DNA of 64,000 bases from Sminthopsis crassicaudata. Its lineage: Eukaryota. The stretch spans positions 505,319,675 through 505,383,674 of the forward strand of contig NC_133618.1 of NCBI RefSeq assembly GCF_048593235.1, in the 5' to 3' direction. Made by a program: the position numbers and the translations under genes. Below the pieces are notes generated by a model. That model made no database searches. It saw nothing but the letters and a program-made list of their open reading frames with translations, and had not been told where the DNA came from. How positions within the stretch are numbered: position 1 is the first letter of the stretch; each line of letters opens with the position of its first letter. Shown one piece after another: positions 59,086 through 59,174 of this stretch.

Positions 59086-59087
59086 AT

Positions 59088-59105
59088 TGGCGCCCAACGT
59101 GGGGC
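59088..59105 (+). promoter_or_regulatory. Primer-binding site 1, tRNA-Lys1,2
   Basis: TGGCGCCCAACGTGGGGC, the canonical 18-nt Lys1,2 PBS, 2 nt after the LTR CA end. Confidence 0.96.
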
Positions 59106-59156
59106 AAGGACTTTTGCTTATCCTGACAAGAGGAGCTAGACCAGACCTTCGCAATT

Positions 59157-59174
59157 TGGCGCCCGAACAGGGGC
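59157..59174 (+). promoter_or_regulatory. Second primer-binding-site-like sequence, tRNA-Lys3-like
   Basis: TGGCGCCCGAACAGGGGC, 17/18 match to the Lys3 PBS TGGCGCCCGAACAGGGAC. Preceded by ...TTCGCA-ATT. Confidence 0.88.

Follow-up and report, generated by a model that had tools for sequence, protein, structure and literature searches.

The window, by which we mean the whole stretch of 64,000 nucleotides of dunnart DNA analysed here, contains a young provirus at positions 58622-62126. The provirus is gag-only, env-less and betaretrovirus-like, and it has an identical pair of 464-bp LTRs and a 6-bp target-site duplication (TSD). Two primer-binding sites (PBS1 and PBS2) lie in tandem downstream of its 5' LTR. 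Its features are the following.

58616-58621 (+): left target-site duplication, 6 bp, the same as 62127-62132
58622-59085 (+): 5' LTR, short form, 464 bp, TG...CA, 100% identical to 61663-62126
59088-59105 (+): PBS1, complementary to tRNA-Lys(CTT), 18/18 against tRNA gene L155 plus CCA
59106-59153 (+): spacer and alternative U5 extension; sister long LTRs stop at the CA of 59152-59153 with a 6/6 TSD (9 proviruses and 11 solo LTRs)
59133-59139 (+): 7-nt motif complementary to the D-stem/5' region of tRNA-Lys; site of whole-tRNA read-through junctions in L160, L170, L175 and L177
59157-59174 (+): PBS2, complementary to tRNA-Lys(TTT), 17/18 in the window and 18/18 in 27/28 parsed sisters
59175-59342 (+): leader, with a splice-donor-like site at 59240-59245 predicted from sequence
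59343-61166 (+): gag ORF, 607 aa (MA p10, CA p24, zinc knuckle); Pfam PF02337, PF00607 and PF19317, with PF14787 below cut-off
61217-61360 (+): what is left of the integrase C-terminus, with the peptide that also closes the pol ORF of L037
61414-61449 (+): possible remnant resembling the env immunosuppressive domain; weak, a likeness judged by eye
61647-61662 (+): polypurine tract
61663-62126 (+): 3' LTR, short form
62127-62132 (+): right target-site duplication

The pro gene and most of pol are deleted in this copy, and at 61127-61220 the open gag frame continues into a new C-terminal tail. Rfam gave sub-threshold matches only in the window, the best of them to a gag/pro frameshift site at 60902-60957 that has been retained despite the deletion of pro. 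The window LTR carries one TATA-like hexamer, at 58800. In comparison with this LTR (58622-59085), indels in U3 and R make those of the sister copies vary between about 365 and 480 bp.

The family is large in the genome, with 1303 candidates at first look, and shows the features of class II elements: p10 matrix, p24 capsid and zinc knuckles in Gag (the zinc-knuckle model scoring below cut-off), TG...CA LTRs, a 6-bp TSD, a polypurine tract and a lysine PBS. Env-less gag-pro-pol copies of about 6.4-6.5 kb between TSDs occur, and sister copies contain RT-RNaseH-IN ORFs. In one such copy (L037) the gag, pro and pol frames are followed by about 0.4 kb before the 3' LTR, with no env ORF. Among named homologues of Gag, the closest bear the labels fat-tailed dunnart (56-99%) and Tasmanian devil (43-60%). 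Copies with gag alone, about 3.4-3.5 kb long, are far more numerous than full-length ones and differ in their internal deletions (L031-L150). A pol-only derivative, in which PBS2 is fused directly to the start of RT, was found within a young LINE-1 (L049, oriented 3506-6519). Head-to-tail tandem copies about 3 kb apart were seen in L036 and at C5:136282792-136288811 (L208-L210), the latter array having a single Lys-TTT PBS. Two loci on C1, at 6.21 Mb and 6.27 Mb (L053 and L054), represent one insertion found twice, inverted and with a shared TSD, which indicates a segmental duplication or an assembly duplicate.

The two primer-binding sites and their tRNAs

The sequence-only reading had described 59088-59105 as a perfect Lys1,2 PBS and 59157-59174, 51 nt further on, as a 17/18 Lys3 PBS preceded by CA and a short spacer, as at an LTR end. 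All of this was borne out with lysine tRNA genes of the same genome, called by ARAGORN, as references (L155 for Lys-CTT and L153 for Lys-TTT). PBS1 matched Lys-CTT at 18/18 and Lys-TTT at 13/18 positions, and PBS2 matched Lys-TTT at 17/18 and Lys-CTT at 14/18. The sequence upstream of PBS1 is CA plus 2 nt and that upstream of PBS2 is CA plus 3 nt. On both strands of the 64-kb window the first 8 letters of the PBS have only these two matches. In a canonical retroviral leader a single PBS right after U5 goes with a single U5 end; here there are two PBS and two ends bounded by TSDs.

Sister copies keep both sites, as had been proposed for checking. Both were present in 28/28 loci parsed from the best 30 matches, which were chosen by similarity, and PBS2 was 18/18 in 27 of them, the mismatch at 59173 in the window being the minority state. 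The gap between CA and PBS was mostly 2 nt at PBS1 (81/87) and 3 nt at PBS2 (86/87). The long-end motif joined to the first 12 nt of PBS2 occurred 1805 times in the genome, as compared to 0 times for the reversed control, which excludes a chance origin.

A 19-nt allele of PBS1, with one insertion and one substitution, is common in the family (L031, L037, L038, L061, L218, L226 and many more). It has been retained in 25/73 short proviruses and 9/20 long copies and also occurs in the middle one of the three subfamilies described below, while in the oldest the same position of PBS1 is occupied by another insertion allele. No tRNA gene matching the 19-nt allele was found among 100 of the 110 listed matches to a lysine tRNA pattern. 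Contigs of a second organism (X16) contained an 18/18 PBS2 and the PBS1 insertion; no listed piece spans both sites, so they were not used as evidence. Nothing was found in the X22 contigs.

Short and long LTR ends

In total 121 loci were classified (120 fetched loci and the window); 4 could not be called and one yielded two calls, resulting in 118 rows. A 6/6 TSD bounded 73 short and 9 long proviruses (the window and one duplicate locus being among the short ones), as well as 11 long and 1 short solo LTRs. For the other 24 of the 118 rows no 6/6 TSD was found, as they were truncated, rearranged, extended beyond the fetched stretch or were off by 1-2 nt. As the loci were selected via the long-end or the leader motif, short solo LTRs are unsampled in these counts, and several of the long proviruses were fetched first for their paired motifs.

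The long LTR equals the short LTR plus 68 bp and ends just before PBS2. Priming at PBS2 had been predicted to give such longer LTRs, and a search for LTRs that end at the second U5 tip and are followed by a TSD yielded 20 of them, the 9 proviruses and 11 solo LTRs. In every one the TSD comes directly after the CA three bases before PBS2, and other candidate ends reached at most 4/6. The long LTRs consist of the family's own LTR, PBS1 and the spacer, and not of a foreign LTR. PBS1 was the same in both LTRs of 8/9 long proviruses, 5 of which carried a non-canonical allele; this is expected if PBS1 is copied as part of U5 and not reset by the primer. Full-length copies were found with either end, long in L037 and L131 and short in L080, L090, L108 and others. 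In the window the 3' LTR stops at the short end with the TSD adjoining, which identifies PBS1 as the primer site that made this copy. Six further loci (L064, L099, L213, L216, L217 and L222) have the LTR with PBS1, the spacer and PBS2, immediately followed by unrelated DNA, and look like inserted plus-strand strong-stop DNA, primed at PBS2, that did not undergo the second strand transfer.

A census of C1 up to 90.7 Mb gave 58 short and 5 long proviruses. Genome-wide the long-end motif occurred 3126 times and was followed by a PBS-like start in 2511 cases, leaving 615, a figure that includes copies with a decayed PBS2. The short-end motif, which may also catch the middle subfamily, occurred 5620 times and was followed by PBS1 in 2312 cases, leaving 3308. 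With pattern sensitivities of 48/51 (long) and 34/60 (short), the corrected estimate is about 650 long and 5800 short ends, or approximately 10% long.

The primers themselves left footprints. A pattern for the 3' half of lysine tRNA had 110 matches in the genome, of which the first 30 were fetched: three were genuine tRNA genes, four belonged elsewhere and 23 lay within the family. Among these first 30 of the 110, read-through of Lys-CTT, up to the whole tRNA, was found at the short end in 11 loci and read-through of Lys-TTT at the long end in 10 loci (5 young and 5 older). These copies would arise when plus-strand synthesis overran the 18-nt stop and continued into the primer. One of the 23 family loci was a hybrid. 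L177 bears both footprints, which may stem from successive cycles. Two loci (L158 and L168) have Lys-CTT copies after the long end and one (L164) has a Lys-TTT-type arm after PBS1; to judge by these sequences, the specificity of priming is incomplete.

A copy of the entire tRNA runs back into the spacer at the motif 59133-59139 in four loci. The similarity of this motif to tRNA was not by itself above chance in the window copy, nor was that of the spacer when considered as a decayed read-through copy (309/1000 shuffles). In eight older copies the spacer gave marginal values (0-75 of 1000 shuffles), and a tRNA-Arg control scored alike in most of them.

The long and short proviruses are equally young, with a median LTR-LTR divergence of 0 and 0.002, respectively. 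The 8 long copies in a gag tree of 74 rows require 8 changes, as compared to a mean of 7.7 after shuffling, and the 20 in an LTR tree of 92 rows require 17, with a shuffled mean of 18.4. The trees omit one duplicate locus and one short solo LTR. By gag sequence, 8/8 long copies have a short copy as nearest neighbour or show a tie. Resolution was poor, with 5/71 and 9/89 starred inner branches in the gag and LTR tree, and recombination is likely, so the lack of clustering is weak on its own; the starred branches force at least 4 (gag) and at least 7 (LTR) changes. The trees had been proposed as a way to reveal discordance left by a graft between two viruses, and in both of them the long copies are mixed with the short ones. 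From this scattering, the type of end looks like a choice of primer in each cycle and not like the mark of a second virus.

Older subfamilies

With queries taken from L176 and L151 we found two older subfamilies and examined 60 best-match loci, 30 of each. These loci were chosen by similarity to the PBS region, which inflates the apparent conservation. Both subfamilies have the sites in the same order, Lys-CTT and then Lys-TTT, with a spacing of 90 nt as compared to 69 nt in the young subfamily. PBS2 reached at least 14/18 in 28/30 and 21/30 loci. Of the loci below this value, 9 stop at the long end, and 5 of them, all long solo LTRs, have a TSD.

The LTR-LTR divergence was 1.2-7.3% among the typable middle proviruses (10/16) and 2.5-10.9% among the typable old ones (9/15), all of which were short. 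One middle copy (L292) has a long provirus end with a TSD, on a short alignment. The second CA lies 3 nt from PBS2 in 27/27 middle and 15/17 old parsed loci. Between the subfamilies the bases before this CA have changed, the spacer has lost 21 nt, and U3 and U5 turn over.

Copies with a single PBS were also found, with 31 exact-pattern matches that include both tRNA types. They are scattered on the LTR tree, needing 20 changes for 23 rows with 21.3 after shuffling. Their sequences look like the outcome of recurrent deletions between the two similar sites, none of which gave rise to an expanded lineage.

Probable use of two primers and likely origin of the tandem pair

We interpret the family as an env-less, betaretrovirus-like one with a tandem PBS, whose copies stop at either U5 end. 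Very likely, tRNA-Lys(CTT) at PBS1 is the primer of reverse transcription for about nine of ten insertions, and tRNA-Lys(TTT) at PBS2 for about one of ten. The use of two primers is that likely because two U5 ends occur, each with a terminal CA and a 6-bp TSD. With Lys-CTT at PBS1, ordinary reverse transcription would give 464-bp LTRs. With Lys-TTT at PBS2, the minus-strand strong-stop DNA would take in the spacer and PBS1, both LTRs would gain 68 bp, and integrase would use the second CA. Both types of provirus would make the same genomic RNA, so that the primer would be chosen anew in each cycle, provided that polyadenylation takes place upstream of the short end. A canonical poly(A) hexamer was not found in the LTR, nor was a poly(A)-tailed partial LTR found among the fetched loci. 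The bias towards PBS1 might reflect pairing of PBS2 with the spacer, as in a fold predicted without a shuffle control, or a block by the tRNA at PBS1. Among the points against this interpretation is that the 19-nt PBS1 allele persists without a matching listed tRNA gene, when copying of the tRNA should erode it. Priming at PBS2 would shelter this allele, and the counts do not separate partial correction from none.

Two readings with a single active site were considered. It is very improbable that PBS1 alone primes and that the long LTRs are later products of gene conversion, tandem arrays or template switching. Tandem and rearranged copies do exist (L036, L039, L042, L208-L210), but in 20 loci a perfect TSD adjoins the second CA, which requires the action of integrase on that end, and the read-through of Lys-TTT in 10 loci lies exactly at PBS2. 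Priming by PBS2 alone, with short LTRs made by integrase cutting at the inner CA, has even less to recommend it: the mismatched allele in 25 of the 73 short proviruses would fit, looking as though tRNA copying sometimes failed to reset PBS1, but the 11 loci with Lys-CTT read-through, up to the whole tRNA, at the short end speak against it, and integrases trim 2-3 nt only. The use of both sites was also part of the earlier suggestion of a dual-primer design for helpers with different tRNAs. That part stands, as both sites left priming products, but helpers are not needed, since full-length gag-pro-pol copies have both PBS with either type of LTR.

As to the origin of the pair, the sequence-only reading had suggested a recombination scar left by a graft, one virus having contributed the LTR with the Lys1,2 PBS and another the U5 tip, Lys3 PBS and leader behind them; long LTRs would then belong to or recall the latter, the donor. 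No donor family having the second U5 tip alone came to light among the loci analysed. The two sites do match different tRNAs, the U5 tips of the young subfamily are dissimilar (at most 33/91 matches at any offset tested), and the turnover of U3 and U5 between subfamilies would also agree with a graft. We nevertheless consider it unlikely, as the long LTRs are made of the family's own sequence, are as young as the short ones and are mixed with them on the trees. Moreover, the pair was already present in two older subfamilies, with PBS1-like sequence upstream of the spacer in 60/60 loci (though the queries contained PBS1), and in the oldest subfamily the two U5 tips have about 13 nt in common. 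Because of this resemblance duplication is favoured over a graft: the pair likely arose, as judged from the sequences, by an old duplication of the U5 tip with its PBS, after which one copy switched its lysine tRNA. Why the pair was kept is a separate matter. A role of PBS2 and the spacer in RNA structure (packaging, dimerisation or primer activation), with priming at PBS2 as a tolerated by-product, is a serious though not the favoured possibility and is compatible with dual priming. In a predicted fold the spacer and the PBS2 region form a single long stem, and PBS2 is slightly less open than PBS1 (0.26 and 0.34-0.36 unpaired, without a shuffle control). PBS2 is used in a minority of insertions, and the deletants lose the spacer together with one PBS, so their failure to expand does not isolate PBS2. 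On the other hand, the terminal CA has stayed 3 nt from PBS2 in the middle and old loci despite the changed bases before it and the 21-nt loss from the spacer, PBS2 remains a near-perfect 18-mer to a real tRNA, and about 650 insertions derive from it. More tentatively, and with rather less probability, the tandem pair could be a selected adaptation. Priming at PBS2 would turn PBS1 into LTR sequence beyond the reset by tRNA, sheltering mismatched PBS1 alleles, and would serve as a hedge against host silencing of one PBS (by 3' tRNA fragments or PBS-binding repressors) or against a changing supply of germline tRNA. If this were true, each of roughly 6,000 insertions would record the primer that was used.

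Retroviruses normally have one PBS, and its position next to U5 is a textbook rule that is used to name and classify endogenous retroviruses (ERVs). In IAP, MusD/ETn and betaretroviruses such as MMTV, MPMV and JSRV a single PBS adjoins U5 and each family has one U5 end; the known changes of primer among them are replacements and not tandem pairs. The dunnart family shares with them class II Gag, a 6-bp TSD, in several cases a lysine primer, and the loss of env with gag-only non-autonomous derivatives. Two-PBS laboratory retroviruses were the subject of Voronin and Pathak in 2004 and Li et al. in 1997, whose titles announce dual initiation and stable maintenance. They resemble the present family in having two PBS on one genome, each able to initiate, which in our case is read from fossil products. 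Whereas the laboratory viruses are engineered or culture-selected derivatives of HIV-1, the dunnart family is natural and germline-fixed, has kept the pair through three subfamilies and, in thousands of copies, integrates with LTRs of two lengths. HIV-1 of subtype A/CRF has a natural 23-nt insertion downstream of the PBS, likewise an extra segment just 3' of it, but in the available part of that paper it is not presented as either a complete second PBS or a further integration end (PMC11181671). No natural dual-primer ERV was found in a search of literature mostly outside subscription journals, its early phrase searches covering unhyphenated spellings. The accessible parts of PMC13641905 and PMC4408412 do not mention a PBS. 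We think it rather probable that a natural dual-primer ERV is new.

By structure and host, the family probably corresponds to MEBrv 3 (marsupial endogenous betaretrovirus 3), which the accessible part of its description presents as a class II ERV with gag, pro and pol but no env that has multiplied in dasyurids, with identical LTRs of about 469 bp, for which one length is given, and an ISD-like remnant after pol (PMC11334065). The two are alike in that full-length copies have gag-pro-pol without an env ORF, in their high copy number in dasyurids (thousands of motif matches here) and in their identical LTR pairs, 464 bp long here. The remnant beyond pol may have a counterpart at 61414-61449, where a weak likeness was judged by eye. 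The reported length is about 7.3 kb, in contrast to about 6.4-6.5 kb between TSDs here, and the basis of measurement is possibly different. The words PBS, primer and tRNA do not occur in the main text of that paper, and the available part of its supplement text has no match to the name MEBrv 3 or to either PBS (PMC11334065).

A natural and recently active family with two tRNA primers and two integrating ends breaks the textbook rule of a single PBS. The choice of primer becomes countable from the genome, as the length of the LTR tells which tRNA was used for each insertion. With a tandem intermediate caught and deletants of both kinds at hand, the family opens tests of how primer tRNAs are switched, of how strict integrase is at the U5 end, and of whether PBS-directed silencing by the host shapes the evolution of ERVs. 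Repeat libraries with a single LTR boundary will mis-trim about a tenth of the family's insertions. Complete antisense copies of tRNA-Lys(CTT) with CCA lie inside several proviruses (L160, L170, L174, L175, L177 and L180); ARAGORN calls most of these tRNA genes, and therefore counts of tRNA genes for this genome are inflated by read-through of ERV primers. Read-through of Lys-CTT was also seen in L163 and L167, which belong to another LTR family of the same genome, at that family's own PBS.
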